The notes under the pieces are model-generated. The model did no database searches. It saw only the letters and a list, made by a program, of their open reading frames with translations, and was not told the origin of the DNA. The translations under genes were made by a program, and so were the position numbers. Of a stretch of DNA of 64,000 nt, positions 10,617 through 48,270 are shown in pieces. The stretch is taken from positions 744,001 through 808,000 of the forward strand of contig BROI01000008.1 of the NCBI GenBank assembly GCA_027923505.1, given 5' to 3'. Numbering within the stretch: position 1 is the stretch's first letter; every line of letters begins with the position of its first letter. The stretch comes from Mayamaea pseudoterrestris (taxonomy: Eukaryota).

Positions 10617-13600
10617 GCCATGTATACACCCATATCACACCAGAATGGTGCCAACAACATTATTCAGGCTGCGCTACAAGATGGTAGGCTTGGCTGGTGT
10701 CTCAGAGGATGTCAATGTATTTGGTGACAACTTGTCACCAATCTCAGCCCAAAGATGCCGTGACATTCAAACGCCCCTACAGCAAGCCCTGTAGGTGCCC
10801 AAATTACACCAGAATGGTGCCAACATCATTATTCAGGCTGCACTACAAGATGGAAAGCTTGGCCGGTGTCTCAGGGGATGGCAATGTATTTGGTGACAAC
10901 TTGTCACCAGTCTCAGCCCGCAGATGCCATAAATTCAAACGCCCCTACAGCAAGCCCTGTAGGTGCCCAAATTACACCAGAATGGTGACAACATCATTAT
11001 TCAGGCTGCGCTACAAGATGGTATGCTTGGCTGGTGTCTCAGGGAATGGCAATGTATTTGCTGACAACTTGTCACCAGTCTCAGCCCGCAGATGCCATGA
11101 CATTCAAACGCCCCTACAGCAAGCCCTGCAGGAGCCCAGATTACACCAGAATGGTGCCAACGTCATTATTCAGGCTGCACTACGAGATGGAAAGCTTGGC
11201 TGGTGTCTCAGGGGATGGCAATGTATTTGGTGACAACTTGTCACCAGTCTCAGCCCGCAGATGCCATGACATTCAGACGCCCCTACAGCAAGCCCTGTAG
11301 GTGCCCAAATTACACCAGAATGGTGCCAACATCATTATTCAAGCTGCACTACAAGACGGTAGGCTTGGCTGGTGTCTCAGGGGTTGTATGGCAATGTATT
11401 TGGTGACAACTTGTCACCAGTCTCAGCCCGCAGATGCCATAAAATTCAAACGCCCCTACAGCAAGCCCTGTAGGTGCCCAAATTACACCAGAATGGTGAC
11501 AACATCATTATTCAGGCTGCACTACAAGATGGAAAGCTGTTTTGCTGGTGTCTCAGAGGATGTCAATGTATTTGGTGACAACTTGTCACCAATCTCAGCC
11601 CACAGATGCCGTGACATTCAAACGCCCCTACAGCAAGCCCTGTAGGTGCCCAAATTACACCAGAATTGTGCCAACATCAATATTCAGGCTGCACTACAAG
11701 ATGGAAAGCTTGGCCGGTGTCTCAGGGGATGGCAATGTTTTTGGTGACAACTTGTCACCAGTCTCATCCCGCAGATGCCATAAATTCAAACGCCCCTACA
11801 GCAAGCCCTGTAGGTGCCCAAATTACACCAGAATGGTGACAACATCATTTTTCAGGCTGCACTACAAGATGGAAAGCTTGGCTGGTGTCTCAGAGGATGT
11901 CAATGTATTTGGTGACAACTTGTCACCAGTCTCAGCCCGCAGATGCCGTGACATTCAAATGCCCCTACAGCAAACCTTGTAGGCGCCCAAATTACACCAG
12001 AATTGTGCCAACATCATAATTCAGGCTGCAGTACAAGTTGGTATGCTTGGCTGGTGTCTCAGGGGATGGCAATGTATTTGGTTACAACTTGTCACCAGTC
12101 TCAGCCAGCAGATGCCGTGACATTCAGACGCCCCTACAGCAAGCCTTGTAGGCGCCCAAATTACACCAGAACGGTGCCAACATCATTATTCAGGCTGCAC
12201 TACAAGACGGTAGGCTTGGCTGGTGTCTCAGGGGTTGTATGGCAATGTATTTGGTGACAACTTGTCACCAGTCTCAGCCCGCAGATGCCATAAAATTCAA
12301 ACGCCCCTACAGCAAGCCCTGTAGGTGCCCAAATTACACCAGAATGGTGACAACATCATTATTCAGGCTGCACTACAAGATGGAAAGCTGTTTGGCTGGT
12401 GTCTCAGAGGATGTCAATGTATTTGGTGACAACTTGTCACCAGTCTCAGCCCGCAGATGCCGTGACATTCAAATGCCCCTACAGCAAGCCCTGTAGGTGC
12501 CCAAATTACACCAGAATTGTGCCAACATCAATATTCAGGCTGCAGTACAAGTTGGTATGCTTGGCTGGTGTCTCAGAGGATGGCAATGTATTTGGTGACA
12601 ACTTGCCTCCAGTCTCAGCCAGCAGATGCTCACGTGACATTTAAACGCCATACAGCAAGCCCTGTAGGTGCCCAAATTACACCAGAATAATGCCAACATC
12701 ATTATTCAAGCTGCAGTACAAGAAGGAAAGCTTGGCTGGTGTCTCAGGGGATGGCAATGTATATGGTAACAACTTGTCACCAGTCTCGGCAAGCAGATGC
12801 TGTGACATTCAAACGCCCCTACAGCACGCCCTGTAGGTGCCCAAATAACACCAGAATGGTGCCAACATCATTATTCAGGCTGCGCTACAAGATGGTATGC
12901 TTGGCTGGTGTCTCAGGGAATGGCAATGTATTTGCTGACAACTTGTCACCAGTCTCAGCCCGCAGATGCCATGACATTCAAACGCCCCTACAGCAAGCCC
13001 TGCAGGAGCCCAGATTACACCAGAATGGTGCCAACGTCATTATTCAGGCTGCACTACGAGATGGAAAGCTTGGCTGGTGTCTCAGGGGATGGCAATGTAT
13101 TTGGTGACAACTTGTCACCAGTCTCAGCCCGCAGATGCCATGACATTCAAATGCCCCTACAGCAAGCCCGTAGGTGCCCAAATTACACCAGAATGGTGCC
13201 AACATCATTATTCAGGCTGCACTACAAGATGGAAAGCTTGGCTGGTGTCTCAGGAGATGGCAATGAATTTGGTGACAACTTGTCACCAGTCTCAGCCCGC
13301 AGATGCCATGACATTCAAATGCCCCTACAGCAAGCCCCGTAGGTGCCCAAATTACACTAGAATGGTGCCAACATCATTGTTTAGGCTGCGCTACAAGATG
13401 GTAGGCTTGGCTGGTGTCTCAGGGGATGGCAATGTATTTGCTGACAACTTGTCACCAGTCTCAGCCCGCAGATGCCATGACATTCAGACGCCCCTACAGC
13501 AAGCCCTGCAGGTGCCCAAATTACACCAGAATGGTGCCAATATCATTATTCAGGCTGCGCTACAAGATGGTATGCTTGGCTGGTGTCTCAGGGGATGGCA

Positions 13601-14610
13601 ATGTATTTGCTGACAACTTGTCACCAGTCTCAGCCCGCAGATGCCATGACATTCAAATGCCCCTACAGCAAGCCCTGCAGGTGCCCAGATTACACCAGAA
13701 TGGTGCCAACATCATTATTCAGGCTGCACTACGAGATGGAAAGCTTGGCTGGTGTCTCAGGGGATGGCAATGTATTTGCTGACAACTTGTCACCAGTCTC
13801 AGCCCGCAGATGCCATGACATTCAAACGCCCCTACAGCAAGCCCTGCAGGTGCCCAGATTACACCAGAATGGTGCCAACATCATTATTCAGGCTGCACTT
13901 CGAGATGGAAAGCTTGGCTGGTGTCTCAGGGGATGGCAATGTATTTGGTGACAACTTGTCACCAGTCTCAGCCAGCAGATGCTCACGTGACATTCAAACG
14001 CCCCTACAGCAAGCCCTGTAGGTGCCCAAATTACACCAGAATGGTGCCAACATCATTTTTCAGGCTGCACTACAAGATGGAAAGCTTGGCTGGTGTCTCA
14101 GGAGATGGCAATGTATTTGGTGACAACTTGTCACCAGTCTCAGCCCGCAGATGCCATGACATTCAAATGCCCCTACAGCAAGCCCCGTAGGTGCCCAAAT
14201 TACAGCAGAATGGTGCCAACATCATTGTTTAGGCTGCGCTACAAGATGGTAGGCTTGGCTGGTGTCTCAGGGGATGGCAATGTATTTGCTGACAACTTGT
14301 CACCAGTCTCAGCCCGCAGATGCCATGACATTCAAACGCCCCTACAGCAAGCCCTGTAGGTGCCCAAATTACACCAGAACGGTGCCAACATCATTGTTTA
14401 GGCTGCACTACGAGATGGAAAGCTTGGCTGGTGTCTCAGGGGATGGCAATGTATTTGGTGACAACTTGTCACCAGTCTCAGCCAGCAGATGCCTTCATAT
14501 TTAATTGCCCCTATAAGAAGCCCTGTGGGGGCCCAAATTACACCAGAATGGTGCCAACATCATTATTCAAGCTGCGCTACAAGTGGGTAGGCTTGGCTGG
14601 TGTCTCAGGG
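10617..14610. repeat. 169-bp tandem satellite, block 1 (about 24 monomers)
   Basis: Head-to-tail repeats of CCCAAATTACACCAGAATGGTGCCAACATCATTATTCAGGCTGC...TGGTGACAACTTGTCACCA...CCTACAGCAAGCCCTGTAGG at 169-bp spacing. Confidence 0.98.
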
Positions 14611-14995
14611 TAACACCGTTGACGATTTCGCAGTCAACGTCTTACCTCCAAAAAGCTCCGATACAGGGTCCTTGGCCACGGTCTGTACAGCTCTGATGGA
14701 GATGGCTCGTCAAATAGTCTTGCGCTCGCCACTACACGAATACGACTGCACTCTCGTCGCAAACTAGTAGTTTTATATTGTGAGCTTATCGCTACATCGC
14801 TACATCGACCACTCGGAAGATCATCCGATCAATCCAATCACATTACATCAGTCGTAACTGGTCGTTCCATTCATACAACGCATCCACACGACGGTTGCGC
14901 ACTTTCTTCATTCACATGTCACATACGACAGCTGCGGACTCGACACAAGCTAATTAGGGTTCGGGCTCTTGACTTCGCCGCTCTACGACTTGTCA
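14611..14995 (-). repeat. 3' LTR of Copia A (385 bp)
   Basis: Direct repeat of 20814-21208. By eye 4 substitutions plus 1-bp and 9-bp indels. Termini TGACA...TGTTA on the minus strand. Confidence 0.95.
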
Positions 14996-17900
14996 CTCCC
15001 CTCGGGTACGCCGCTCGTCGTAGCCGCATTCTTGTCCTTCACAATTGCATACGATGTATCGCCGCGCCAAAACAATACTGGCTTGAGCAATGGCATCGCA
15101 TCACAGTACGGCAGGTACTTCGTCAGTACGTCCGCAATGTTCTCCTTTCCGTCAATCTTTACAAACTTGATAATCCCCGCAGCAACTGCCCAACGAACAC
15201 GATGGTAGGCCAACGCATTGTGTCGCTTGGACAATGTCGAACTCGGGATTGTAGATTGCGTAATCACTGCTTGGTTGTCTCCGTACATCCAGGCAGACTT
15301 CTCCAATGGTACGCCCATAGCCATGAGCGACACACGTAGAGAAATGCTGATATCCGTTCCACTCTTTGCTACGCCGAATTCCGATCCGAAGGTCGCAGTC
15401 TCGACTGTAGCCTGGAGTTTGCAATGCCAGTCGACAGGCGTCTGATTGACAAATGACAAAACTCCTTCCAATGACTTGCCTGTCACCATGCAATGCATGA
15501 GACACGCATCCTCGAAAGTTGATGTTCGTACGGTCACACCCTTTGGCGGTGGGTAGACGTCCAACATCTCATCAACTCCGTCCTTCCCGTAAACGCTGCG
15601 CTCCCAATCTTGTTCCTCCATGGTGCCGAAGTGCTCCTCGTTGGCTGGCCACTTTGTACGGAAACGGATTGCTGCGTCCGGTAACTCTCGCAAATATCCA
15701 CAGACTCGCTTCACACGCTGCAGGTGTCCCTTGCGCGGCTCCACACGGAATCGCGACAGACTCACAACTGCTACGGCAATGTCAAATCGTCCCAAAGTAA
15801 TCGCCCACTGAAGTGCTCCGACTAGAGACTGGTAAATCTTCTTCTCTTGGTCGTTCAGTAGCTCGCTTTGGTCGGTCGATGCTTGCTTGTCGATTTGGTG
15901 ATGGTACTTCTTCGGAGGACCTTCAAACAAACGCTCGTACTGCGCCAAGAATGCAACTTTCAGACGCCCGTAGGCAGTAAAGGGTTCCGTCAGGGTCTCG
16001 TCCAAAGTCACCGCCGAGATGATACTCGGGATGTCCAACACCTTTAAGCTTAAACTTGTACTTCTCCTCTAGCATCTTGAAGAACGCTGCTGGATCGTCT
16101 GAAATATTTAACAGATCGTCGACCCATACACAGAGGTAGTCGTAGCTGTCGCCGGCGTCCTTGATCCACAGATCGGAATCGCAATAGGACGGCTTCCACC
16201 CTTCCGCAAGTAGGGCGTCGGCTAAGCGTTCGTGAAATCGTGCTCCGCTCGTTCGCAATCCGTACAAAGCCTTGACGATGACCAGGATGTGTCCTTCGCG
16301 CTCCCCGAACTCGGGGCCTCCAACGAAGTATACCTTCTCCTTGGTGAACGCTTCGAGATAAGCATTCCCAATGTCACCGACCATGCACTTCTTGCCGTTC
16401 GCTTCTCCAATGACGAGAGCTAGACGCATTGCCTTCAATGAGATAACACTGGAGTAGGCATCGTCGTTGTCTTTCGTCATGTGGCCGCCTGCAACGAGAC
16501 GTGCCTTGTATCGCAAATCGTGCTTGACATCGTACACAAAATGGACTCGGATCTTCTGGTAACCAGTTGGTGGTGTTGTGGTGGAACTCGGACCAAGATC
16601 TTGAAACGTCTCGTACTCGTCCAGGTTCGCAAGCTCCACGCCTTCCGCATCCGTCCACTTCGTGTGCCCTGCAGCTTCTTGTAGACGACGCGCTTCCTTC
16701 CAGTCTCGGGGTACTTGGACTCCAAACTTGTAGCGCGGTCCGTTCTTCTGCTGCTCCATTCGGGCGGTCGCCACCTTGCGCGCAACCTTCTTGGCGTTCC
16801 GGCCCATCGATTCAACGATGTCCATCCGTCCTTGTCGAGAAGATTATGCTTTTGCGCGTAGGCTGCCACTGATACTTTGTCGCTTTCGATCATCGCGTTG
16901 AGAGGCTCCCAAGTCTTGGATCCATCGTCCCATTGTACAAGGACGTTCCACTTGGAGTGCTTCCAGTTCTTCGACTTGCTCGTCAGCGGACCCTGATGGT
17001 CTAGAATCTCCTTGAAGAACCATTTACGCTCAGGATTTGCCATGTCTTGGTTCACTTTGGCCTCATAGAGATCGGAAACCTCGACATAGGACATGACTTC
17101 ATCCGCTTCGCCGTTACCAAGTTTCAGCATCATTTTAATGTTCTGATGGTTCTGGGCGTCGCGATTGTTCAGCTTGCTCATGACGGTCGCTCGAACTTCT
17201 TGCCCGTCGTCCGTCTTCATGAGAAACGACTTGCCGATAAGTTCATCGGGTGCATACTTCGGGAGTTTGCGCCACGGATTGATGTTCTTCTTCTTCGGCT
17301 TGTCGTCGTCGTCATCGGCAGGAAGCATCGGCAGTGGATCTAGCTCCCCGTCGGTCATATCGTCATCTTCCGGGTATTCCACCGTCTCGACCAAAGGGGT
17401 ATCGTCTTCGTCAGGAATGAAAGAATCTTCGTCTCTGCTGTCGGCGTCGGTAATCTTCTTGATCATTTCCGGCATAAGGATCTCGCCACCTAGACCAGGT
17501 ACGGTATAGCGCGGCTCCCCTTCTTTCATGACTGGGGAAGCAGGTGCCGGTACGCGAAGGTTCAAAAATTTTGGGTTGTTTCGGGGTAAGCAAACCGATC
17601 GCGTCATGATCTCGTGTGTCTCGCAATCGCAGATGAAGTACGTCAGGTCGTCTCCGCACGTCGTGTTGGGACCAAGCCAGTACGCCGCGCGCTGGCGGGT
17701 ACCCGGGGCCTCGACATCCTTGACAAAGTAGTTGACAATTTCAAACCAACGAAAATGCAAATACTTCGACACGTCGGGGACTTGCCCAGTGATAAACTCA
17801 ATGGGAGATTTGCCGTCCAAGGCAGGATGCGACAAATGACGGTACATCTCGGTCTGAAAGAGTAAAGCGCGTAGCCAGAAGCATGCCGGAGTGCCCGTTC

Positions 17901-20716
17901 GGTCCATAAGTCGTTCATGACTTTCCTTTACGTGCCCGATGATGCGATCGGCTGGGTTTTGATTCTGATAGTACGGCTCCGATGTATGACGACGGCGAAT
18001 CATGAACTCGCGCATTACTTCGTCAAACTCGGCACTCATCGCTTCTTTCGCATTATCCGAGAAGACTTCCAACGGAGCTCCAAACTCGCGGATGAAATCA
18101 CGGAATCGTTTTGGTACGTCACCTTTCGTCCGCATGGGATACACGACAATGATCTGACTGCGACAACCATAGAATAGCTGCACGCATGTGCACCCTGCAT
18201 GTCCGTCGATATGGTCATCCATGGCAGGTTCGTCGAAGAACATGGTGTCATGGGCCACTCGATCATCTAGACGGTAGACGTTCAGGAATCGGCTCTTTCG
18301 ATGCATTCGTGGGGGGTATCGGCGCTCGTGCATGTTGAACTGCGTGCTATGGCGCAAAGTATCCTTGATCGTCTGCGCCGGGTACCATGCAAAGTTCGGC
18401 AGCAATGCGTCGATATCGGGTTTCTTTGGCAGGATAGACTTGTAGGGCTGATAGACGAGATCCGCATTGTATTTCTGTACGACGGCACAAACATTCAGCT
18501 CCTTCTCGGTGTAAACAGGTTGATTGTCGTGTCCGAGATTCGTATAAGTCAGGTTGCTCTGACAATGGGTGCGATTCCGCGTACGCGAGCGTGTCACGCG
18601 CGTGAAGCCCTCTTCGTCGTCACTGTCTTCGTCGTCTTCATCGCGCGACAACAAGTCCGGTACGTCGTCCTCGTCGTCATCGTCATCCGAAGAGTCATAG
18701 TCGTCGTCCTCGGTCGGCTCGACGTCAAACTCATTCGGATCCCAAGGCCCATCGAAAGTCATCATGACCCGAGGTAAGGTGTGAAGCTCATGCGCCGACA
18801 CTGGAAACATTGGCAAGGTCGCCATGCCACTTTCCATTCCGAGCATAAACTTGTATCCATCTGGCGTTTCGATTCGTAACTTGCCACCAAAGTTGTAATG
18901 CTTATCATTGACATGAAGTCCGAAGGCTTCCATCTGCATACTCGAATGAATCGTCTTGCCGGTTCCAGAATATGCGTAATTATGGAACTCGCCGATGACC
19001 CAACCCTTGGTGCTCTTAAGCTTGGCGACTGCTGTGACGGTAGACAGGTCCGGAAGCTTGAGACCACCGACTCCAGTGACTTCAATCTTGTGGAACTTGT
19101 CCTCGGTAAGGATGCGGCCATCCGCTCCCCATACTCCGCCACTCGCGCCGCGATCGACAGTCGACGCTGAATGCTTATCCAAGTCAATGCTCGCGACTTT
19201 GTACTTGCGACTCTGAGCAATGTTTGCTCCCCGAGTCGTAGTCGTGGGCTGGTCTGGACCTAAGAAACTTCGCATCGCTGAGCCACGGCTGGTGTTGTTC
19301 ACACATTCGGTCGCCGCACTCGCCGTCGTTGCCGCTGATGAAGTGGCTGCGACGTTTGCGTTGCGTGTTGTACTCGTCGTCTGCGTGGTGCCTGCCTGTG
19401 TTGCTGATGCCGAACCACCTGCAGCACTGGCCGCTCGACTCGTACCACGGCGTTCAAACACTTCATGTTGCTGATCGCGGGTAAGGAGTCGCCACGTGTT
19501 TGGTGGAATCGTCGCATTCACGTCGCTGGGAATTTCGATCGTCTTCGTGTCGGCATAGCTGCGAACATACGAACGAGTATCTCCCCGACCGCGGCCGCCG
19601 CCGCCTCGTCCCGTGCTCAAGTCGCCGCAACCACCGCCCCCCTGATTGGATTGCTGATTGTTGCTGCTACTTGGCGTAGACTGGGAATTGTTTGCGCTTG
19701 CCTTCTTCGTCTTCTCCTTCTCTTTCTTGGTTTGCTCAGATTGGTTCGCCTGGCGCTTCTCGGTCTCCTTGATGCCACGACGATTGTCAGATTGACGTGC
19801 GACGTCGTTCAGGAGGTTCCAAAACTGGGTGTACGTCATCGGGTTGCCGGTCTTGGACTCTTCGATCAGCGCCATGTTCACCGCCGATGCCATATCCGCA
19901 TGGCGGAAAACCACGGTCAGCTCTGACGCTTCGTGCTGAGGCTCGGTTTCCTCAGCGTAGTCATTGTAGTTCTCTTCCTTGCTGGACCACTGGATAAGCC
20001 AATCTGACGAGAGACTGCCATGACGGGATTCAAATTGCCCTTCGTCTTCGCGAGCACGGTGCCCAACTCCAGAATGTCGCCTCCAACTCTGCATGACGCA
20101 GGCATTTGCGCTGTCGATGTGCTTGCGGCAATGGACATGAGCTTGCTCTGCGGTGTCTTGCAGGTAAGGCGGCAAAGTTCGGTGACACTGATACTGGCAC
20201 CGGGCTCGGAGTGCAGCTGGTGCCTTGACCCTCTCGTCCCCAGCCAAGCGCCAGTAGGTGCCAGAGGAGCAGAAGGGCGACATCGTTTTGAGGCCTCCAT
20301 GTCAGCTTGATGTCGTGTCGCTTTGTCGTGGTGTCGTTGCCTCCGATAACGCTGAAGTCTCCGAAACTGCGGTTTCCTGCGGTCGGTGACCCCGGTGCTG
20401 CTGGGAGGTCTCGGCTCGTAATGTGGTCTTTCTCCAGGTCTTGCCATTGCGCAGTCGTCCGACGTTGCTCGTGAATCCAACTCATGAGCTTGCGCAACCG
20501 GCTTGTTCGTATCGTCGACCACTGGTGCTGGGTCTTAATGTTTGTCACGTCTTGTTCCGACAGCTCGGCCATCGCCTCCGCAGTCGTGAGTTCCTCTTGC
20601 TCGAAACACACTGCGGTAGGGTCGTTTGGATCCCAAGTTGCGGATGCTGCGAGCCACGGAATGTCAAAGACTTTACCGACGGCACGCTTGTAGGTCGTTA
20701 CATCAATTGTCGCCAT
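14983..20716 (-). pseudogene. Frameshifted gag-pol polyprotein of Copia A
   Basis: Coding sequence is split over four ORFs (breaks near 20280, 16810 and 15970). Protease VDRGASGG, integrase HDT/SDNA/NPAD, RT YKARLVAGG and CVWVDD, RNase H ENIADVLTK. Confidence 0.9.
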
Positions 20717-20813
20717 GGTGGAGGTTGATCAGAGGAATCGGACTTGCTGCAGATGAATGTGTCACGATAGCTCCCTCGCTCATTCTTGCTCTCGAAGCAC
20801 TGAAATGTTAATC

Positions 20814-21208
20814 TAACACCGTTGACGATTTTGCAGTCAACGTCTTACATCCAAAAAGCTCCGATACAGGGTCCTTGGCCACGGTCTGTACAGCTCTTGA
20901 TGGAGATGGCTCGTCGAATAGTCTTGCGCTCGCCACTACACGAATACGACTGCACTCTCGTCGCAAACTAGTAGTTTTATATTGTGAGCTTATCGCTACA
21001 TCGCTACATCGACCACTCGGAAGATCATCCGATCAATCCGTTTCTTTCAATCACATTACATCAGTCGTAACTGGTCGTTCCATTCATACAACGCATCCAC
21101 ACGACGGTTGCGCACTTTCTTCATTCACATGTCACATACGACAGCTGCGGACTCGACACAAGCTAATTAGGGTTTGGGCTCTTGACTTCGCCGCTCTACG
21201 ACTTGTCA
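20814..21208 (-). repeat. 5' LTR of Copia A (395 bp)
   Basis: Direct repeat of 14611-14995, followed on the minus strand by GATTAACA (20813-20806). Confidence 0.95.
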
Positions 21209-33335: not shown

Positions 33336-33484
33336 GATTAACACTGTCTTGAGACTCATTGCCTCGGCATAGAGACTTTATCGACGAAGAGTACTATTGA
33401 TTTACGAAGTAACGTGGACGCACGTTGGTTCTTGGCCCGGAAAGTTCCGCAGGTGATAGCAAGAACATTGTCACGACGACAACG

Positions 33485-36400: not shown

Positions 36401-39277
36401 ACCACAGAACCGGGTCATCCAGAACAAAATCCATGCGAACGTCACACGTCGCACATTAAGCCAATGATGGAGAACCTCCAACGAGATTCGGGTTCGCCAG
36501 GCCATTGCTGGGTTTTGCTGATTAAATTCGTAATCATGATACTGAACGTCCTCGCGACGAAATCGCTGGGATGGCGCACGCCAACGGAAGTTGCGTTCGG
36601 AAATCTGCCGGATATTTCGCCTTTGTTACATTTCAAGTGGTGGGAACCGGTCACGTTTGAGGCGCAGGGGAGCTTTCCCTCGGCGGTACGATCTGGCAAC
36701 GGCCGATTCGTGGGCATCGCAGAGAATAGCGGTCCGCACATGACTTTTCTCGTTCTGACGGACGACACGCTTCAGGCGATTCCGCGCTCCAACGTGGTCT
36801 CGCGCAGCTACTTGTTACCACGAGAGTTGCCTTCCTTCCCTGAGTCTGGAGGGGAGATTTCTGAAGAAGCTACACGCGCAAGCGAGCGAAATTTTGAAAC
36901 TCCAGATCTCGCGACAGGACGCTACCATAGCACGCATGTGACAGAAAGTAGTCACGACAACTACGAAGGAAACGACGACGAAACGATTCCGATGGCGAAC
37001 CACGCCAACGTACCAGCGAAGTTCTTCAGAAGGGCTGAGCAAGAATCAGGGAATAAATGCCCTCTGTTCTCTCCAAGCGAACTCATCGGACGCACGTTCG
37101 TAAGGGAACACGAAAACGGTCAGAAAATGCGAGCGACTGTATGCGAATATATCGAAGTACGCGATAACGAGCTACTCGAAACGACGAAAGGTTTCCTAAT
37201 CCAAATGGGAGAGGAGCCAGCGAAAGACTTAATAAGTTACAACGAACTGTCGGATTTAATCGAACGACAGATGGACGAAGATATACGAAACGATCCGGCG
37301 ACTCAGTGGGTATTCACGAAGGTAATCGGACACGAGCTTAATTTGAAACCGAACGATCCGACATACAAAGGAAGTTCAAGTAACGTTCTCGTCGAATGGA
37401 CTGACGGAACGACGACGTGGGAGCCTCTCGCGATCATGAAGAAGGACGATCCGATAACGATCGCAGAGTATGGACTCAAGCACGGCTTACTCGACAAGCC
37501 AGGATGGAAGCAGCTGGAGCATTACACTCGGAAGCGAAAGAAGTTTCGACAGATGGTAACAGCGGCGAAACGAAAATCGAAAGCAAACGGCGTACGCTAC
37601 AAATTCGGCGTAAGGTTGCCGCGCAATTATAAAGATGCGAAAGCTCTCGACGAGATCAACGGCAACACGCTGTGGACGGATGCGATTCGAACGGAATTAA
37701 ATCAGATAAATGATTACGACACGTTCGCAGATCAAGGAGTCGGTAAGGTTATGCCGGCGCCGTGGAAACGAATAAACGTGCACATGATATTCGATGTCAA
37801 GCACGATTTGCGACGGAAAGCACGACTCGTTGCAGGAGGACATATGACAGAGCCGCCGAAGGATTCAGTTTACTCGGGCGTTGTGTCATTGCGAAGTCTA
37901 CGAATGGTAGCGATGTTAGCGGAACTCAACGGTCTGGAACTGTGGGCAGCTGACGTCGGCAACGCATACTTGGAAGCGAAAACGAAAGAGAAGGTTTATA
38001 TCGTGGCAGGTCCGGAGTTCGGGGAGCTCGAGGGTCACACGCTCACGATCGTGAAGGCATTATACGGTCTTCGCACGTCAGGCGCACGCTGGCACGAGCA
38101 CTTTGCAGACACGCTCCGCGACATTGGCTTCATGCCGTGTATCGCAGAACCGGACGTGTGGATGCGCGATAAAGGCACGCACTACGAATACGTTTGTGTG
38201 TATGTCGACGATTTAGCGATAGCGATGAAGAATCCGAAGGAACTAACGGATCTTTTAATTGAGAACTACAACTACAAGTTGAAGGGCGTCGGTCCATTGG
38301 CATATCATTTGGGCGCAGACGTTTGGCGAGACGACGACGGCGTACTCTGCTTCGGAGCGAAGAAGTACGTCACAAGACTACTAGCGAACTACAAAGAAAT
38401 GTTCGGCGAGGAACCGCGACCGCAGACAAGTCCACTACGCGACGGCGATCATCCGGAACTCGACGAAACGAAAGAACTTGACGACGACGGAATTGCGAAG
38501 TATCAATCGATAATTGGTGCGTTGCAATGGGCAGTAAGTTTATGTCGATTCGACATTCACTGTGCTGTCATGACTATGGGGAGATTCCGAGCTGCGCCAC
38601 GAGCGGGGCACTTGGAACGGTTGAAGCATATTTGCGGATACTTACGAAGATACCCGGATGGAGCGATTCGATTCAACGTTTCGATTCCAACGGACGAGCG
38701 ATACGCGACAGTTGACAAGATGGATTGGGATTACAGTGTGTACGGCAAGATCTGCGAAGAGCTTCCGTGGAACATGCCCACGCCGCGCGGCAAGGCGGTG
38801 CGAATGTCAACGTTCGAAGATGCGAACCTGTACCACGATTACACGACGGGACGGGCAGCGATGGGCATGCTACACATGTTGAATGGAACAGTCGTTGATT
38901 GGTTTTCGAAACGCCAAGCGACGGTCGAGACGGCGACGTACGGCTCGGAGTTTGTAGCAGCGAGAGTGAGCACGGAGCAGATCATGGATCTTCGCTTCAC
39001 GCTACGCATGTTGGGAGTTCCGCTCGACGGACCTTCATGGATGTTTGGAGACAACAAGTCGGTAACGCAAAGCAGCAACCTACCGCACTCTAGTCTGACG
39101 AAGCGACACAATGCACTGGCATTTCACCGTGTACGCGAAGCGATTGCGGCGGGAATTATTAATTTCAACCACATCATGGGAACGACAAACCCGGCGGATG
39201 TACTTACCAAGTTTCTTCCACGGGCTACGGCAAGCAAGCACTTAAAGAACCTGCTCTTCAAGGAATCTAACTATTAG
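33485..39277 (+). CDS. Copia gag-pol polyprotein (1930 aa): Gag, protease, integrase, chromodomain-like module, RT, RNase H
   Basis: ATG at 33485. LIDSGANGG, ATDT/SDNA/NPCE (DDE), RKARLVAGG, CVYVDD and TNPADVLTK; no stops. Confidence 0.96.
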   Translation: MAETRAQKDAAFAHVYEENVGVFQDPQFKELFDELGVESLTQLIEMEYDDFATKWNVTTTTTTTTDDGDNVTQETSEHSLTKMKQRTITNAIEWYLAQESPDIKTWSQLTTETLATFVTARAKERVQARNIASVGSGSGAKPPAKESETESKKDESKDSTLTNEGDESKPDSADKVPPTSVDVDTKQSPTSVLDLGDDEDDEKYSDQFTKSIKFSARDCKEMKLDSSWKQWISELKVIATLHDFHEVFDDDYDPKEKGPKEQKAYAKKNVFVYRIFLTHCRTPSASLAVQQFKKTMDGREVYQRLRTRYEEGATAHIEKERARTELQGMRLTEKWSRPTIEFLALFYKKVIWLLEMDAEALTGLQRYDMLRDAFSEHTGFSASLAGFDGMIAIKKHMGQHDSEDNFAQLYAHLEECCIKYDKKHPSTTKTKRTINQAQSSGTKGGGGGNGGATPSGLSAERFAAIMKKPHASVKDEVWLEMKFDQRKQLKDKRATAPKTPENGWRPRNQRGTATTQTQVNAAHQERHATESVANDHASVPGTINIQPGNSGMSVQTAARSVLQANNASTTTQQVTGSLTTDNTGRGTFSFNMHRRMRVNRAHYERINEGALIDSGANGGLCGGDMLVVSETNAEVDVTGIDDHIVPALKIGTAAGLAKTLSGETILLLCHQYALKRDGPTIHCPNQLRAMGHRVDDIPTMFGGTQRITTNIGGYVLPLAIRDGLVYLDVTKPTFDDLDKYPTVIMTSDVPWDSTVYDVEHAHDDFDERDHDYGSFDERFDDDGITHRNRHTPTRTGDELDVLINRCVRHAQFSRVNLRKLRSKEPDYNALRPYLGWVPTERVQQTLRHTEAWYHLSAHPRLPFRHLTKSRFPAANVQRLRELFATDTIHSDTPALDDGILGHGGATKMQLFVGRESFYTRGYPMKSESEMSNALEDFIREVGAPNGLLSDNAKSETGKAVRDLCRMYNIPQVTTEPGHPEQNPCERHTSHIKPMMENLQRDSGSPGHCWVLLIKFVIMILNVLATKSLGWRTPTEVAFGNLPDISPLLHFKWWEPVTFEAQGSFPSAVRSGNGRFVGIAENSGPHMTFLVLTDDTLQAIPRSNVVSRSYLLPRELPSFPESGGEISEEATRASERNFETPDLATGRYHSTHVTESSHDNYEGNDDETIPMANHANVPAKFFRRAEQESGNKCPLFSPSELIGRTFVREHENGQKMRATVCEYIEVRDNELLETTKGFLIQMGEEPAKDLISYNELSDLIERQMDEDIRNDPATQWVFTKVIGHELNLKPNDPTYKGSSSNVLVEWTDGTTTWEPLAIMKKDDPITIAEYGLKHGLLDKPGWKQLEHYTRKRKKFRQMVTAAKRKSKANGVRYKFGVRLPRNYKDAKALDEINGNTLWTDAIRTELNQINDYDTFADQGVGKVMPAPWKRINVHMIFDVKHDLRRKARLVAGGHMTEPPKDSVYSGVVSLRSLRMVAMLAELNGLELWAADVGNAYLEAKTKEKVYIVAGPEFGELEGHTLTIVKALYGLRTSGARWHEHFADTLRDIGFMPCIAEPDVWMRDKGTHYEYVCVYVDDLAIAMKNPKELTDLLIENYNYKLKGVGPLAYHLGADVWRDDDGVLCFGAKKYVTRLLANYKEMFGEEPRPQTSPLRDGDHPELDETKELDDDGIAKYQSIIGALQWAVSLCRFDIHCAVMTMGRFRAAPRAGHLERLKHICGYLRRYPDGAIRFNVSIPTDERYATVDKMDWDYSVYGKICEELPWNMPTPRGKAVRMSTFEDANLYHDYTTGRAAMGMLHMLNGTVVDWFSKRQATVETATYGSEFVAARVSTEQIMDLRFTLRMLGVPLDGPSWMFGDNKSVTQSSNLPHSSLTKRHNALAFHRVREAIAAGIINFNHIMGTTNPADVLTKFLPRATASKHLKNLLFKESNY

Positions 39278-39294
39278 GTATGACTTGAGGGGAG

Positions 39295-39607
39295 TTGCAG
39301 GATGCGAACGAAAACAGCGAAAATCGGGCAAGTCACACCGAATGTCCGATAGGGTGACACAGCGGCACTCGCGGCTCACCACAGCCTCACGATCGCGTGA
39401 TGCGTGGCAGCGACGGCTTCGAAGCGATTCAACAAGTATATTGCTGAAACTAGTGCGATATAGAGTAGAAACAAGCAGACTTACTAAGCTTGAAGAGTTA
39501 AGAAAGCGATTTATTCGTCTCTCGTATTGTAGCAACTGCAAGCTTGGATTGGCCATCCAAGGACAGCTACAAGCGAAAGGTGCAACGATTTGATTTACAA
39601 GTTACAA
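39295..39607 (+). repeat. Second LTR of Copia B
   Basis: 313-bp direct repeat preceded by the PPT. Confidence 0.93.
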
Positions 39608-41746
39608 TATGGACTCAAGCACGGCTTACTCGACAAGCCAGGATGGAAGCAGCTGGAGCATTACACTCGGAAGCGAAAGAAGTTTCGACAGATGGTAACA
39701 GCGGCGAAACGAAAATCGAAAGCAAACGGCGTACGCTACAAATTCGGCGTAAGGTTGCCGCGCAATTATAAAGATGCGAAAGCTCTCGACGAGATCAACG
39801 GCAACACGCTGTGGACGGATGCGATTCGAACGGAATTAAATCAGATAAATGATTACGACACGTTCGCAGATCAAGGAGTCGGTAAGGTTATGCCGGCGCC
39901 GTGGAAACGAATAAACGTGCACATGATATTCGATGTCAAGCACGATTTGCGACGGAAAGCACGACTCGTTGCAGGAGGACATATGACAGAGCCGCCGAAG
40001 GATTCAGTTTACTCGGGCGTTGTGTCATTGCGAAGTCTACGAATGGTAGCGATGTTAGCGGAACTCAACGGTCTGGAACTGTGGGCAGCTGACGTCGGCA
40101 ACGCATACTTGGAAGCGAAAACGAAAGAGAAGGTTTATATCGTGGCAGGTCCGGAGTTCGGGGAGCTCGAGGGTCACACGCTCACGATCGTGAAGGCATT
40201 ATACGGTCTTCGCACGTCAGGCGCACGCTGGCACGAGCACTTTGCAGACACGCTCCGCGACATTGGCTTCATGCCGTGTATCGCAGAACCGGACGTGTGG
40301 ATGCGCGATAAAGGCACGCACTACGAATACGTTTGTGTGTATGTCGACGATTTAGCGATAGCGATGAAGAATCCGAAGGAACTAACGGATCTTTTAATTG
40401 AGAACTACAACTACAAGTTGAAGGGCGTCGGTCCATTGGCATATCATTTGGGCGCAGACGTTTGGCGAGACGACGACGGCGTACTCTGCTTCGGAGCGAA
40501 GAAGTACGTCACAAGACTACTAGCGAACTACAAAGAAATGTTCGGCGAGGAACCGCGACCGCAGACAAGTCCACTACGCGACGGCGATCATCCGGAACTC
40601 GACGAAACGAAAGAACTTGACGACGACGGAATTGCGAAGTATCAATCGATAATTGGTGCGTTGCAATGGGCAGTAAGTTTATGTCGATTCGACATTCACT
40701 GTGCTGTCATGACTATGGGGAGATTCCGAGCTGCGCCACGAGCGGGGCACTTGGAACGGTTGAAGCATATTTGCGGATACTTACGAAGATACCCGGATGG
40801 AGCGATTCGATTCAACGTTTCGATTCCAACGGACGAGCGATACGCGACAGTTGACAAGATGGATTGGGATTACAGTGTGTACGGCAAGATCTGCGAAGAG
40901 CTTCCGTGGAACATGCCCACGCCGCGCGGCAAGGCGGTGCGAATGTCAACGTTCGAAGATGCGAACCTGTACCACGATTACACGACGGGACGGGCAGCGA
41001 TGGGCATGCTACACATGTTGAATGGAACAGTCGTTGATTGGTTTTCGAAACGCCAAGCGACGGTCGAGACGGCGACGTACGGCTCGGAGTTTGTAGCAGC
41101 GAGAGTGAGCACGGAGCAGATCATGGATCTTCGCTTCACGCTACGCATGTTGGGAGTTCCGCTCGACGGACCTTCATGGATGTTTGGAGACAACAAGTCG
41201 GTAACGCAAAGCAGCAACCTACCGCACTCTAGTCTGACGAAGCGACACAATGCACTGGCATTTCACCGTGTACGCGAAGCGATTGCGGCGGGAATTATTA
41301 ATTTCAACCACATCATGGGAACGACAAACCCGGCGGATGTACTTACCAAGTTTCTTCCACGGGCTACGGCAAGCAAGCACTTAAAGAACCTGCTCTTCAA
41401 GGAATCTAACTATTAGGTATGACTTGAGGGGAGTTGCAGGATGCGAACGAAAACAGCGAAAATCGGGCAAGTCACACCGAATGTCCGATAGGGTGACACA
41501 GCGGCACTCGCGGCTCACCACAGCCTCACGATCGCGTGATGCGTGGCAGCGACGGCTTCGAAGCGATTCAACAAGTATATTGCTGAAACTAGTGCGATAT
41601 AGAGTAGAAACAAGCAGACTTACTAAGCTTGAAGAGTTAAGAAAGCGATTTATTCGTCTCTCGTATTGTAGCAACTGCAAGCTTGGATTGGCCATCCAAG
41701 GACAGCTACAAGCGAAAGGTGCAACGATTTGATTTACAAGTTACAA
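39608..41746 (+). mobile_element. Second, 5'-truncated copy of Copia B (RT, RNase H and third LTR 41434-41746)
   Basis: Exact copy of 37469-39607 at offset 2139, starting immediately after the second LTR. Confidence 0.93.
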
Positions 41747-42230
41747 CACCAGTCTCAGCCCGCAGATGCCGTGACACTCAAACGCATCTACAGCAGATGG
41801 CCCACAAAGTCGGTACCCAAATTATGACCAGAATGGATGCCAAAATATTATATGTATTCATCCGCTGCGCTACAAGGTGGTAGGCTTGGTTGAGCGTTTG
41901 AATCTCAGGGATGGCCAAGTCCTCTTCACCAGCCACATAAAGCAGCAAGGTGATTCATCCCCCCAAGACTCTGGCATCACTCCGCTGGAGTGGCTCAATT
42001 TGCCCACGAAGGGGCCAAACATTGCTACTTGCGGCTGCGCAAAAATTGACAAGATGCGGAGGCTTTGGCTGGTGTGAATTGTGGCAATGAATTGCAGGTG
42101 ACAACTTGTCACCAGTCTCAGCGCAAAGATGCCATGACATTCAAGCGCCACAGCAAGCCCTGTAGAGATTACACCAGAGTGGTGGCATCATCGCAAGTTA
42201 TTCGGGCTGCGCAACCATGAGGCCAATTGG
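41747..42230. other. Mosaic of satellite and YR-element RNase H sequence, probable chimeric consensus
   Basis: Short words alternately match the satellite monomer and 32845-33022 (e.g. CCAAAATATT, TATTCATCCG, GCCAAGTCCTC, GCCACATAAAG). Confidence 0.7.
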
Positions 42231-42550
42231 TTTGGGCCACACGTGATGGATTGTTCAAAGTAGGATACAGCATGCGCGAGTCATCTAAGACTTCTTTTGA
42301 GAGAGCAATCCGACCCTTGCGCCACCAAGCTCTTGAGGAAGGCTTGGAAGTGCGAGCTTTAGCTGCCACACGCCTTGCCTGTTCATCAGCCTTTCGGGCC
42401 GCATCCGATAGAGACTGTTGGACTCTAATAGAAAGAAAATTGGCTAGGTCTGCCACAAAGGCACCGTGTCGCATCAAACCAACAATGGAGGATTTATCAG
42501 CGGCAGTGACGACTACCGTTTTAAATTGTTTGTTTGACAACCAATCCGAG
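42231..42550 (-). pseudogene. RT-RNase H linker fragment of the YR retrotransposon, 5'-truncated
   Basis: SIVGLMRHGAFV...FLSIRVQ...WW...WPKPIGLM lies upstream of, and on the same strand as, the RNase H remnant. No gag or RT core remains before the satellite resumes. Confidence 0.6.
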
Positions 42551-45500
42551 TGTAGGTACGGCCCAAATTACACCAGAATGGTGACAACATCATTATTCAG
42601 GCTGCGCTACAAGATGGTAGGCTTGGCTGGTGTCTCAGGGGATGGCAATGTATTTGGTGACAACTTGTCACCAGTCTCAGCCAGCAGATGCCATGACATT
42701 CAAACGCCCCTACAGCAAGCCCTGTAGGTGCCCAAATTACACCAGAATGGTGCCAACATCATTATTCAGGCTGCACTACAAGATGGAAAGCTTGGCTGGT
42801 GTCTCAGGGGATGGCAATGTATTTGGTGACAACTTGTCACCAGTCTCAGCCCGCAGATGCCATGACATTCAAACGCCCCTACAGCAAGCCCTGTAGGGGC
42901 CCAAATTACACCAGAATGGTGCCAACATCATTATTCAGGCTGCGCTACAAGATGGTAGGCTTGGCTGGTGTCTCAGGGGATGGCAATGTATTTGGTGACA
43001 ACTTGTCACCAGTCTCAGCCAGCAGATGCCATGACATTCAAACGCCCCTACAGCAAGCCCTGTAGGTGCCCAAATTACACCAGAATGGTGCCAACATCAT
43101 TGTTTAGGCTGCACTACAAGATGGAAAGCTTGGCTGGTGTCTCAGGGGATGGCAATGTATTTGGTGACAACTTGTCACCAGTCTCAGCCCGCAGATGCCA
43201 TGACATTCAAACGCCCCTACAGCAAGCCCTGTAGGTGCCCAAATTACACCAGAATGGTGCCAACATCATTATTCAGGCTGCACTACAAGATGGAAAGCTT
43301 GGCTGGTGTCTCAGGGGATGGCAATGTATTTGGTGACAACTTGTCACCAGTCTCAGCCAGCAGATGCCGTGACCTTCAAACGCCCCTACAGCAAGCCCTG
43401 TAGGGGCCCAAATTACACCAGAATGGTGCCAACATCATTATTCAGGCTGCACTACAAGATGGTAAGCTTGGCTGGTGTCTCAGGGGATGGCAATGTATTT
43501 GGTGACAACTTGTCACCAGTCTCAGCCAGCAGATGCCATGACATTCAAACGCCCCTACAGCAAGCCCTGTAGGTGCCCAAATTACACCAGAATGGTGCCA
43601 ACATCATTATTCAGGCTGCGCTACAAGATGGAAAGCTTGGCTGGTGTCTCAGGGGATGGCAATGTATTTGGTGACAACTTGTCACCAGTCTCAGCCCGCA
43701 GATGCCATGACATTCAAACGCCCCTACAGCAAGCCCTGTAGGTGCCCAAATTACACCAGAATGGTGCCAACATCATTATTCAGGCTGCACTACAAGATGG
43801 AATGCTTGGCTGGTGTCTCAGGGGATGGCAATGTATTTGGTGACAACTTGTCACCAGTCTCAGCCCGCAAATGCCATGACATTCAAACGCCCCTACAGCA
43901 AGCCCTGTAGGTGCCCAAATTACACCAGAATGGTGCCAACATCATTATTCAGGCTGCACTACAAGATGGAATGCTTGGCTGGTGTCTCAGGGGATGGCAA
44001 TGTATTTGGTGACAACTTGTCACCAGTCTCAGCCAGCAGATGCCGTGACATTCAAATGCCCCTACAGCAAGCCCTGTAGGTGCCCAAATTACACCAGAAT
44101 GGTGCCAACATCATTATTCAGGCTGCACTACAAGATGGAAAGCTTGGCTGGTGTCTCAGGGGATGGCAATGTATATGGTGACAACTTGTCACCAGTCTCA
44201 GCCCGCAGATGCCATGACATTCAAACGCCCCTACAGCAAGCCCTGTAGGTGCCCAAATTACACCAGAACGGTGCCAACATCATTTTTGAGACTGCGTTAC
44301 AAGATAGAAAGCTTGGCTGGTGTCTCAGGGGATGGCAATGTATTTGGTGACAACTTGTCACCAGTCTCAGCCTGCAGATGCCATGACATTCAAACGCCCC
44401 TACAGCAAGCCCTGTAGGGCCCCAAATTACACCAGAATGGCGCCAACAACGTTATTCAGGCTGCACTACAAGATGGAATGCTTGGCTGGTGTCTCAGGGG
44501 ATGGCAATGTATTTGGTGACAACTTGTCACCAGTCTCAGCCTGCAGATGCCATGACATTTAAACGCCCCTACAGCAAGCCCTGTAGGTGCCCAAATTACA
44601 CCAGAATGGTGCCAACATCACTATTCAGGCTGCACTACAAGACCGAATGCTTGGCTGGTGTCTCAGGGGATGGCAATGTATTTGGTGACAACTTGTCACC
44701 AGTCTCAGCCCGCAGATGCCATGACATTCAAACGCCCCTACAGCAAGCCCTGTAGGTGCCCAAATTACACCAGAATGGTGCCAACATCATTATTCAGGCT
44801 GCACTACATGATGGTAACTCGGCTGGTGTCCCAGGGGATGGCAATGTATTTGGTGACAACTTGTCACCAATCTCAGCTGCAGATGCCGTTACATTCAAAC
44901 GCCCCTACGGCAAGCCCTGTAGGTTCCCAAATTACACCAGAATGGTGCCAGCATCATTATTCTGGCTGCGCTACATAATGGAAAGCTTGGCTGGTGTCTC
45001 AGGGGATGGCAATGTATTTGGTGACAACTTGTCACCAGTCTCAGCCGTAGATGCCATGACATTCAAATGCCCCTACAGCAAGCCCTGTAGGTGCCCAAAT
45101 TACACCAGAATGGTGCCAACATCATTATGCAGGCTGCGCTACAAGACGGAAGGCTTGGCTGGTGTCTCAGGGGATGGCAATGTATTTGGTGACAACTTGT
45201 CACCAGTCTCAGCCCGCAGATGCCATGACATTCAGACGCCCCTACAGCAAGCCCTGTAGGTGCCCAAATTACCCCACAATGCTGCCAACATCATTATTTA
45301 GGCTGCACTACAAGATGGAAAGCTTGGCTGGTGTCTCAGGGGACGGCAATGTATTTGGTGACAACTTGTCACCAGTCTCAGCCCGCAGATGCCATGACAT
45401 TCAAACGCCCCTACAGCAAGCCCTATAGGTGCCCAAATTACACCAGAATGGTGCCAACATCATTATTCAGGCTGCGCTACAAGATGGTAGGCTTGGCTGG

Positions 45501-48270
45501 TGTCGCAGGGGATGGCAATGTATTTGGTGACAACTTGTCACCAGTCTCAGCCAGCAGATGCCATGACATTCAGACGCCCCTACAGCAAGCCCTGTAGGTG
45601 CCCAAATTACACCAGAATGGTGCCAACATCATTATTCAGGCTGCACTACAAGATGGAAAGCTTGGCTGGTGTCTCAGGGGATGGCAATGTATTTGGTGAC
45701 AACTTGTCACCAGTCTCAGCCCGCAGATGCCATGACATTCAAACGCCCCTACAGCAAGCCCAGTAGGTGCCCAAATTACACCAGAACGGTGCCAACATCA
45801 TTATTTAGGCTGCACTACAAGATGGTAGGCTTGGCTGGTGTCTCAGGGGATGGCAATGTATTTGGTGACAACTTGTCACCAGTCTCAGCCAGCAGATGCC
45901 ATGACATTCAGACGCCCCTACAGCAAGCCCTGTAGGTGCCCAAGTTACACCAGAATGGTGTCAGCAGCATGATTTAGGCTGCACTACAAGATGGTAGGCT
46001 TTACTGGTGTCTCAGGGGATGGCAATGTATTTGATGACAACTTGTCACCAGTCTCAGCCCGCAGATGCCATGACATTTAAATGCCCCTACAGCAAGCCCT
46101 GTAGGTGCCCAAGTTACACCAGAATGGTGACAACATCATTATACAGGCTGCGCTACAAGATGGTAGGCTTGGCTGGTGTCTCAGGGGATGGCAATGTATC
46201 TGGTGACAACTTGTCTGACACCAGTCTCAGCCAGCAGATGCCATGACATTCAGACGCCCCTACAGCAAGCCCTGTAGGTGCCCAAATTACACCAGAATGG
46301 TGCCAACATCATTATTCAGGCTGCGCTACAAGATGGAAAGCTTGGCTGGTGTCTCAGGGGATGGCAATGTATTTGGTGACAACTTGTCACCAGTCTCAGC
46401 CCGCAGATGCCATGACATACAAATGCCCCTACAGCAAGCCCAGTAGGTGCCCAAATTACACCAGAATGGTGCCAACATCATTATTCAGGCTGCGCTACAA
46501 GATGGAAAGCTTGATTGGTGTCTCAGGGAATGGCAATGTATTTGGTGACAACTTGTCACCAGTCTCAGCCCGCAGATGCCATGACATTCAAACGCCCCTA
46601 CAGCAAGCCCTGTAGGTGCCCAAATTACACCAGAATGGTGCCAACATCATTATTTAGGCTGCGCTACAAGATGGTAGGCTTGGCTGGTGTCTCAGGGGAT
46701 GGCAATGTATTTGGTGACAACTTGTCACCAGTCTCAGCCAGCAGATGCCGTGACCTTCAAACGCCCCTACAGCAAGCCCTGTAGGTGCCTAAATTACACC
46801 AGAATGGTGACAACAGCCTTATTGAGGCTGCGCTACAAGATGGTAGGCTTGGCTGGTGTCTCAGGGGATGGCAATGTATTTGGTGACAACTTGTCACCAG
46901 TCTCAGCCAGCAGATGCCGTGACCTTCAAACGCCCCTACAGCAAGCCCTGTAGGTGCCCAAATTACACCAGAATGGTGCCAACAGCCTTATTGAGGCTGC
47001 GCTACAAGATGGTAGGCTTGGCTGGTGTCTCAGGGGATGGCAATGTATTTGGTGACAACTTGTCACCAGTCTCAGCCCGCAGATGCCATGACATTCAAAT
47101 GCCCCTACAGCAAGCCCTGTAGGTGCCCAAATTTCACCAGAATGGTGCCAACATCATTATTCAGGCTGCGCTACAAGATGGAAAGCTTGGCTGGTGTCTC
47201 AGGGGATGGCAATGTATTTGGTGACAAGTTGTCACCAGTCTCAGCCCGCAGATGCCATGACATTCAGACGCCCCTACAGCAAGCCCTGTAGGTGCCCAAA
47301 TTACCCCACAATGCTGCCAACAGCATGATCCAGGCTGCGCTACAAGATGGCAGGCTTGGCTGGTGTCTCAGGGGATGGCAATGTATTTGGTGACAACTTG
47401 TCACCAGTCTCAGCCAGCAGATGCCTTCATATTCAATTGCCCCTATAGCAAGCCCTGTAGGTGCCCAAATTACACCAGAATGGTGCTAACATCATTATTC
47501 AGGCTGCGCTACAAGTGGGTAGGCTTGGCTGGTGTCTCAGGGGATGGCAATGTATTTGGTGACAACTTGTCACCAGTCTCAGCCAGCAGATGCCATGACA
47601 TTCAGACGCCCCTACAGCAGGCCCTGTAGGTGCCCAAATTACACCAGAATGGTGCCAACAGCATTATTCAGGCTGCACTACGAGATGGAAAGCTTGGTTG
47701 GTGTCTCGGGGGATGGCAATGTATTTGGTGACAACTTGTCACCAGTCTCAGCCCGCATATGCCATGACATTGAAACGCCCCTACAGCAAGCCCTGTAGGT
47801 GCCCAAATTACCCCACAATGGTGCCAACATCATTATTCAGGCTGCACTACAAGATGCAAAGCTTGGCTGGTGTCTCAGGGGATGGCAATGTATTTGGTGA
47901 CAACTTGTCACCAGTCTCAGCCAGCAGATGCCTTCATTTTCAATTGCCCCTATAGCAAGCCCTGTAGGTGCCCAAATTACACCAGAATGGTGCCAACAGC
48001 ATGATTCAGGCTGCACTACAAGATAGAAAGCTTGGCTGGTGTCTCAGGGGATGGCAATGTGTTTGGTGACAACTTGTCACCAGTCTCAGCCAGCAGATGC
48101 CGTGACATTCAAACGCCCCTACAGCAAGCCATGTATACACCCATATTACACCAGGATGGTGCCACCAATCTTGTTTAAGCTGCGCTACAAGATGGTATGC
48201 CTGGCTGGTGTCTCAGTTGACTGCAATGTGACTGGGGAGAACTTCGCAACAGTAGCATGCCCAGGATGGC
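42551..48270. repeat. 169-bp tandem satellite, block 3 (about 34 monomers), degenerate at the right edge
   Basis: Same monomer and orientation; similarity fades over 48220-48270. Confidence 0.98.

Follow-up and report, generated by a model that had tools for sequence, protein, structure and literature searches.

A 169-bp satellite island with nested Ty1/copia retrotransposons in the diatom Mayamaea pseudoterrestris, a candidate block of methylated satellite heterochromatin

The window analyzed, a 64,000-nucleotide (64-kb) stretch of Mayamaea pseudoterrestris DNA (assembly GCA_027923505.1, contig BROI01000008.1, forward-strand positions 744,001 to 808,000; all positions below count from its first letter), contains a satellite island set between densely packed genes. 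The first methionines of the bordering genes lie at 10492 (minus strand, ankyrin protein) and 48681 (plus strand, helicase), which places the gene-free gap at ~38 kb, in line with the ~37.6 kb without host genes described in an earlier note on this DNA, made from the letters alone. Without the island, the divergent intergenic region in which it lies would measure ~0.5 kb; genes extend over 10 kb and 16 kb on the two sides of the island. It is comprised of ~110 uniformly oriented monomers of 169 bp, totaling ~18.5 kb in four blocks between 10629 and 48253, with two Ty1/copia long terminal repeat (LTR) retrotransposons and one unclassified 2.7-kb stretch lodged among them (Table 1).

Tandem Repeats Finder located the four arrays of 169-bp period at 10629-14610 (23.5 copies), 21204-25104 (23.1 copies), 25146-30102 (29.3 copies), and 42561-48216 (33.5 copies), with matches of 91-94% and scores of 6531-9776; a fifth row with a 290-bp period (24856-25394) is present because one unit in the array is shortened to 121 bp. 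A BLAST search of the window with a single monomer gave 115 hits, of which 114 were on the plus strand and the sole minus-strand hit was a 19-nt palindrome, and the ~18.6 kb of same-orientation monomers put forward in the earlier note was thereby confirmed. The majority consensus of the 107 full-length monomers extracted is 169 nt long with 50.3% GC, and one 23-nt word of the monomer is counted 86 times across the window versus 0 in 100 shuffles. The island thus holds roughly nucleosome-sized, same-orientation tandem monomers of the kind found in satellite-type regional centromeres.

Table 1. Satellite blocks and inserted sequences of the island (window coordinates)
Feature	Position	Strand	Remarks
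Decayed partial monomer, left edge	10570-10628	+	resembles monomer 3' half; depth bin 10566-10611 already draws satellite contigs
Satellite block 1	10629-14610	+	23.5 monomers; most diverged block, mean within-block identity 0.914
Ty1/copia LTR retrotransposon 1, decayed	14611-21208	-	RVT_2 E=1.8e-21
Satellite block 2	21209-25104	+	in phase after element 1; final monomer truncated at position 80
Variant monomer tail, 41 bp	25105-25145	+	with preceding truncated monomer makes one short 121-bp unit
Satellite block 3	25146-30102	+	29.3 monomers; near-consensus patch ~26.5-28.5 kb; ends at monomer position 44
Unclassified insert, 2.7 kb	30103-32846	.	no recognisable coding domain
Diverged satellite variant, left flank of element 2	32847-33021	+	70% identity to 41793-41949
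Ty1/copia LTR retrotransposon 2	33022-41746	+	RVT_2 E=4.9e-25 at residues 1448-1659; 1954-residue open reading frame
Diverged satellite variant	41747-42561	+	~66-80% identical to main monomers; grades into block 4
Satellite block 4	42562-48257	+	33.5 monomers; near-consensus patch 42.5-44.2 kb; last unit 77% identical

The island represents one assembled locus of a diatom satellite family, with 169-bp monomers, that is very abundant and megabase-scale. Satellite abundance was taken as summed contig word depth relative to the single-copy flank in two public sequencing runs, X1 and X2, the latter from a different study and under a different organism label. In X1, the single-copy flank had a depth of 253.4 and the satellite bins summed to 1.8-15.6 million, which integrated over 10612-10965 corresponds to ~11.8 Mb-equivalents, or ~70,000 monomers. 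In X2, with a flank depth of 46.7, the same interval gave ~7.7 Mb-equivalents, or ~45,000 monomers. The contigs on the two monomers numbered 66,349/555,133 in X1 and 13,041/182,933 in X2. The family is therefore of the order of 10^4-10^5 monomers, far beyond the ~110 in the window, which account for ~0.2% of it. Confinement of the satellite to this locus, named in the earlier note as evidence against a centromere, was not found, as word depth implies tens of thousands of monomers elsewhere; the compactness claimed there for the island is doubtful, the satellite family as a whole being megabase-scale by the same measure. The left junction between flank and satellite was recovered in both run sets, with 0 differences in X1 (record 1) and with 2 substitutions and 1 gap in a 12.7-kb contig of X2 (record 9). 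Short-read contigs end ~34 nt into the array, and junctions at other loci are not countable from them.

Several other data sets were searched for the satellite. Runs X6 and X7, which belong to the same study as X1 and carry other organism labels, contain the satellite and are read as traces of the same organism rather than as relatives sharing the repeat; in X6, the unique flank is present at a depth of 2.15 with 0 differences, and the ratio of satellite to flank resembles that in X1. A metagenome_contigs locus, L001, was rejected as a satellite locus, having only the 23-mer in common with the monomer and a profile score of 16.7 over 24 nt at 41% GC, and the match is probably a chance one, unrelated to the satellite. 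At 4860-4914 of L001, several copies of the word GTTGGTGAC are found around a palindrome. The satellite 23-mer had 0 occurrences in genome_contigs and 0 in viral_contigs, and no RNA run was listed among the sequencing runs carrying the satellite.

The satellite differs sharply from its surroundings in dinucleotide composition. The observed/expected ratio of CpG is 0.17-0.27 in the four satellite blocks versus 1.09-1.12 in the flanks, satellite TpG and CpA stand at ~1.7, and the two retrotransposons have CpG ratios of 1.23 (element 1) and 1.54 (element 2). The 169-nt consensus contains 2 CpG versus a shuffle mean of 10.7, a number as low being reached in 2 of 20000 shuffles. Among the monomers, transitions at the 4 CpG-site positions amount to 10.3% versus 1.1% at the 81 other C/G positions (~9 times), and all four CpG-site positions rank within the top five of the 85 C/G positions by transitions. 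Three of the four substitutions between the LTRs of element 1 are likewise CpG transitions. CpG depletion together with CpG hypermutability is the classical signature of 5-methylcytosine deamination. The satellite shows CpG depletion, TpG/CpA excess, and CpG hypermutability, the combination expected of CpG-methylated constitutive heterochromatin, and because of the depletion and the hypermutable CpG sites a long history of methylation and heterochromatin appears likely for the island, but not for the neighboring genes. Where the earlier note had left a choice between a centromere and a discrete heterochromatin knob, these data lend indirect support to the heterochromatin half of that choice.

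The monomers have a mean pairwise identity of 0.931, corresponding to an average difference of ~7%, and the identity within blocks (0.914-0.939) is about equal to that between blocks. No higher-order repeat was found, identity being flat across lags 1-12 in every block; the recently homogenised core or higher-order organization that is a common, if not universal, trait of centromeres is absent from the island. Identity to the consensus rises to 97-99.5% in two patches, at ~26.5-28.5 kb and 42.5-44.2 kb, and the outer edges are more diverged, so that a mild centre-to-edge gradient of monomers surrounds the transposon cluster. Dyad symmetry or non-B DNA was rejected as a hallmark of the monomer, the single-strand fold of which has a z of -0.94, with 36 of 200 shuffles folding as well or better. 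Within the window, a 60-bp core at monomer positions 61-120 has a minor-letter frequency of 1.2% versus ~5% elsewhere, a contrast that 0 of 5000 permutations reach, but among contig variants genome-wide 5 of 60 core positions are polymorphic versus 13 of 109 others (Fisher, p = 0.6); the putatively conserved core is a within-window feature lacking clear genome-wide backing and is kept as a lead. The 17-bp palindrome GGTGACAACTTGTCACC, at monomer positions 95-111, has no listed variant in the window or in the contig data, and other 20-nt stretches of the monomer are as invariant.

The satellite reaches close to the genes on both sides. The decayed left-edge monomer lies upstream of the ankyrin gene, ~80-135 bp from its first ATG, and block 4 ends ~425 bp upstream of the helicase ATG. 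A variant monomer tail ending in GCCATGTATACA is found both at 10617-10628, in the decayed left-edge unit, and at 25134-25145, in the 41-bp filler. Loose ends of run X2 contain the same tail, and it also turns up in the coding sequence of protein P0121, from another record; the tail thus marks a monomer subfamily that exists elsewhere. P0121 is also the one match of the satellite-derived open reading frames (ORFs) in the protein collection, at 82% identity, and is encoded outside the window.

Both retrotransposons can be assigned to Ty1/copia, element 1 by its LTRs, target-site duplication, and RVT_2 domain, and element 2 by its LTRs, RVT_2 domain, and a weak rve match upstream of the reverse transcriptase. 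An alignment of the LTRs of element 1 (14611-14996 and 20814-21208) shows 4 substitutions and 10 gap columns, and the coding region of the element is broken across three overlapping frames. A 5-bp target-site duplication, CAGGG, is present at 14606-14610 and 21209-21213, corresponding to monomer positions 75-79. CAGGG occurs once per monomer, at the site of element 1, and the satellite phase carries on past the element; consequently, element 1 is a copia-type insertion into a pre-existing monomer.

Element 2 has an intact open frame of 1954 residues (33413-39277), in which the weak rve match (residues 943-1003; 20.9 bits, below the cut-off of 32.6) places the integrase before the reverse transcriptase. 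Its polyprotein is unusually long, with ~940 residues ahead of the integrase core that have no Pfam match and may represent an extra N-terminal domain. Three LTR copies, starting at 33022, 39294, and 41433, are 99.7-100% identical, and the element contains an exact 2139-bp tandem duplication (37469-39607 = 39608-41746), giving the order LTR-internal-LTR-partial internal-LTR. Either LTRs exchanged unequally very recently, or the duplication is an artefact of assembly. No target-site duplication was found at the termini of element 2, and its two flanks are different positions of the diverged satellite variant, an arrangement that would be expected from recombination between two copies. To judge by its near-identical LTRs and open frame, element 2 appears to be young, with element 1 apparently old and decayed.

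Over the longer tblastx segments the two elements share 27-59% protein identity and thus belong to different families. No Chromo domain or further Pfam domain was seen in either at E<=1, and the integrase targeting domain of a centromere-targeting retroelement was not detected. The same short word, GATTAACA, lies directly inside the 5' LTR in both families (15000-15010, 20800-20813, and 33336-33345), where the primer-binding site is expected. Of the four different retroelement families previously suggested, two were found, both Ty1/copia, together with the unclassified stretch; their confinement to the island holds within the 64-kb window, the scope of the observation. An exact 207-bp direct repeat (31518-31724 and 31988-32194) lies in the unclassified insert. 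Resemblance of the insert to the monomer is limited to one stretch, a very weak match at 30304-30454, and its sole inverted pair is of 22 nt with 82% complementarity. No Pfam match was obtained for three of its ORFs at E<=1 or for a fourth that extends into the element 2 LTR (32490-33329) at E<=0.001, and no tblastx similarity to either copia element was seen.

The left flank encodes an MRG protein, a proteasome subunit, two large ORFs that have no Pfam family, and the ankyrin protein, and the right flank a GRF/SAP/DEAD helicase, CNNM, an HMG-box protein, and Nop14. The two large left-flank frames (2003-7063 and 6915-8714, minus strand; 1686 and 599 residues) were searched at E<=0.001. Nop14 is read in two open frames, 58210-59718 and 59908-61413, which match the N- and C-terminal halves of the Pfam model, presumably with an intron between them; a weak match to Tudor_5 is seen in the first frame as well. 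Homologues of Nop14 reach 79% identity and the few named ones are from diatoms (Bacillariaceae sp. at 55%, and a cluster containing a Conticribra weissflogii protein). Scans of the window for tRNA and Rfam families found nothing. No TTAGGG- or TTTAGGG-type dimers are present in the window, where the satellite lies beside neither telomere repeats nor a chromosome end.

With about even confidence, the island is interpreted as methylated constitutive satellite heterochromatin that would serve as a tolerated landing zone for retrotransposons. The array would have grown and been maintained by unequal exchange between same-orientation monomers and, because it carries no genes, it could tolerate Ty1/copia insertions as a safe haven. 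Colonization by copia elements would have taken place at different times, leaving one old, decayed copy and one recent, apparently intact one, and methylation would silence the whole block. The island would then behave as a knob-like or pericentromere-like repeat block, for which a kinetochore role is possible. In favor of this interpretation are the structure and orientation of the array, the insertion of element 1 into a monomer, the contrast between a young and a decayed element, the CpG decay, the abundance of the family, and the lack of an actively homogenised core. A number of points weigh against it. Methylation and heterochromatin are deduced from mutation spectra alone. The satellite derives from one founder, so its dinucleotide make-up is a single draw, the hypermutability of CpG sites within the array being the one line of evidence that does not depend on the founder's composition. 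Element 1 shows no CpG depletion (1.23), and decay within the island has therefore been slow or recent. The abundance is rough, since summed contig depth is not a copy number (a warning given by the tool itself), and may be up to two-fold too high, with 8,688 X1 contigs fitting two places. Finally, centromeres of plants and animals take exactly this form, a methylated satellite into which LTR elements are nested, so that the interpretation is compatible with centromere function.

A functional satellite-type regional centromere, with CENH3 on the 169-bp monomers, one such mark per chromosome, and accumulation of copia elements as in plant centromeres, is the most serious alternative, though a less probable one, and would be an architecture unreported for diatoms. 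It would account for nucleosome-sized monomers in uniform orientation within a gene-free, interstitial block bordered by genes on both sides, for the near-consensus monomers beside the central transposon cluster with more diverged edges, for the young intact copia element at the island center, and for the lack of telomere repeats in the window. The commonest 150-200-bp tandem repeat in plants and animals is usually centromeric, as Melters et al. reportedly found in 2013, and for this reason the very high abundance of the family is also counted in its favor. Copia-type or LTR-rich centromeres are moreover described for other stramenopiles in the accessible parts of two reports (PMC7082073, PMC11541908). 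The diatom centromeres studied so far, however, are short, low in GC, and repeat-free according to the portions available of two others (10.1101/096016; 10.1101/2021.11.10.468027), whereas the island has 51% GC and a lowest 500-bp window of 43%. With ~110 of an estimated 45,000-70,000 monomers located here, there must be either much larger arrays elsewhere or hundreds of such islands. The monomer folds no better than its shuffles, and its 60-bp core is not clearly conserved genome-wide. Three features in particular, namely the lack of higher-order repeats or recent homogenisation, the ~0.2% share of the family, and the lack of a detectable chromodomain or other targeting domain in the copia elements, weigh against a centromere core. 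Extended to the whole karyotype, as a diatom with satellite-based regional centromeres in which the megabase 169-bp family forms one array per chromosome, loads CENH3, offers the invariant GGTGACAACTTGTCACC as a box for a sequence-specific centromere protein, and attracts homing copia elements, the proposal is rated slightly lower still.

The assembly may also have collapsed or truncated a longer array, so that the compact 37.6-kb size is artefactual, an account that is compatible with either heterochromatin or a centromere and is regarded as unlikely. The family spans several megabases by word depth against 18.5 kb at the locus, and the two 100%-identical internal duplications (2139 and 207 bp) are of a kind that assemblers can create; yet a mean monomer difference of ~7% is resolvable by accurate long reads, element 1 retains a clean target duplication with the satellite phase kept, and two independent run sets both contain the left junction. 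It is less likely again that the island is an interstitial outpost of a satellite with mainly subtelomeric arrays. Subtelomeric repeats are the main satellite class described for Ectocarpus in the part of the source available (PMC11541908), and the bulk of the family does lie outside the window, but the window lacks telomere-type repeats and the island is enclosed by genes over 10 kb and 16 kb. Least probable by far is a tandem repeat derived from or carried by a transposable element, the island being a nest of such elements. Satellites are often born from retrotransposon-internal repeats; against such an origin here, neither the monomer profile nor BLAST found monomer-like sequence in the copia elements or their LTRs, save for an alignment overhang at 41721-41746, and element 1 clearly inserted into a monomer that was already present.

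A short, AT-rich, repeat-free make-up is shared by the diatom centromeres studied to date, and episome technology in diatom engineering builds on this property. A megabase, nucleosome-sized, interstitial satellite with a methylation mark would reveal a greater diversity of chromosome architecture among diatoms than expected from the model species, and, if the satellite were centromeric, a switch from short AT-rich to satellite centromeres would have occurred within diatoms. Should the island be merely a knob, it would be a repeat block of an ordinary kind in an unusual host. With genes abutting the array on both sides, it would offer a compact system in which to study the origin of heterochromatin or centromeres built on satellites. 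Full-text literature searches, with subscription journals and supplements outside their coverage, turned up no account of satellite centromeres, or of the present repeat, in diatoms.

Plant satellite centromeres with nested LTR elements are exemplified by the 178-bp repeat and ATHILA of Arabidopsis and by CentO and CRR of rice. This type of centromere, for which CENH3 binding and one array per chromosome are the defining features, is the closest formal analogue of the island, which similarly has nucleosome-sized, same-orientation monomers with LTR elements inserted inside them, and is gene-free, gene-bordered, and marked by a methylation-type signature. Unlike plant satellite centromeres, the island has no higher-order or recently homogenised core and its host is a diatom; unlike the Ty3/gypsy CRM of plants, its elements are Ty1/copia with no detectable chromodomain. 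Among diatoms, the centromeres of Phaeodactylum tricornutum are described, in the part of the report available, as short, low-GC (100-bp windows of <=32% GC), and repeat-free (10.1101/096016), and the predicted centromeres of Fistulifera are likewise short and low in GC in the accessible portion of a second (10.1101/2021.11.10.468027). The island resembles those of Phaeodactylum in being intergenic in a compact diatom genome, and differs in being 38 kb long, 51% GC, and built of repeats. Judged by a Phaeodactylum-type criterion of at least about 500 bp of low GC, with clustered 100-bp windows of <=32% and no repeats, the window contains six low-GC patches, all isolated, 100-142 bp long, and outside the satellite. 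As the patches are isolated and the lowest 500-bp GC is 43%, the island is not an AT-rich centromere of the Phaeodactylum type, and the contrast with such centromeres drawn in the earlier note was correct as far as the available text of 10.1101/096016 goes.

The remaining comparisons are with other stramenopiles, each as described in the accessible part of its source. In Ectocarpus, a 98-bp satellite is subtelomeric and contains telomere motifs, and the centromeric ECR elements are chromodomain LTR retrotransposons without satellite arrays (PMC11541908). Ectocarpus is comparable as a stramenopile with a satellite as a chromosome landmark and with LTR elements restricted to one gene-poor region per chromosome; it differs in the subtelomeric position of the satellite and in the chromodomain, satellite-free nature of its centromeric elements. 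PpSat1 and PpSat2 of Phytophthora parasitica (PMC7290008), likened here by description alone, are also abundant stramenopile satellites. The centromeres of Phytophthora sojae contain the copia-like CoLT and are transposon-rich, with no satellites (PMC7082073). They are much longer than the island, which is satellite-dominated and has two copia families with ~2.3 copies in all, and they resemble it as a gene-poor, heterochromatic cluster of copia LTR elements in a stramenopile, some of them intact with near-identical LTRs.

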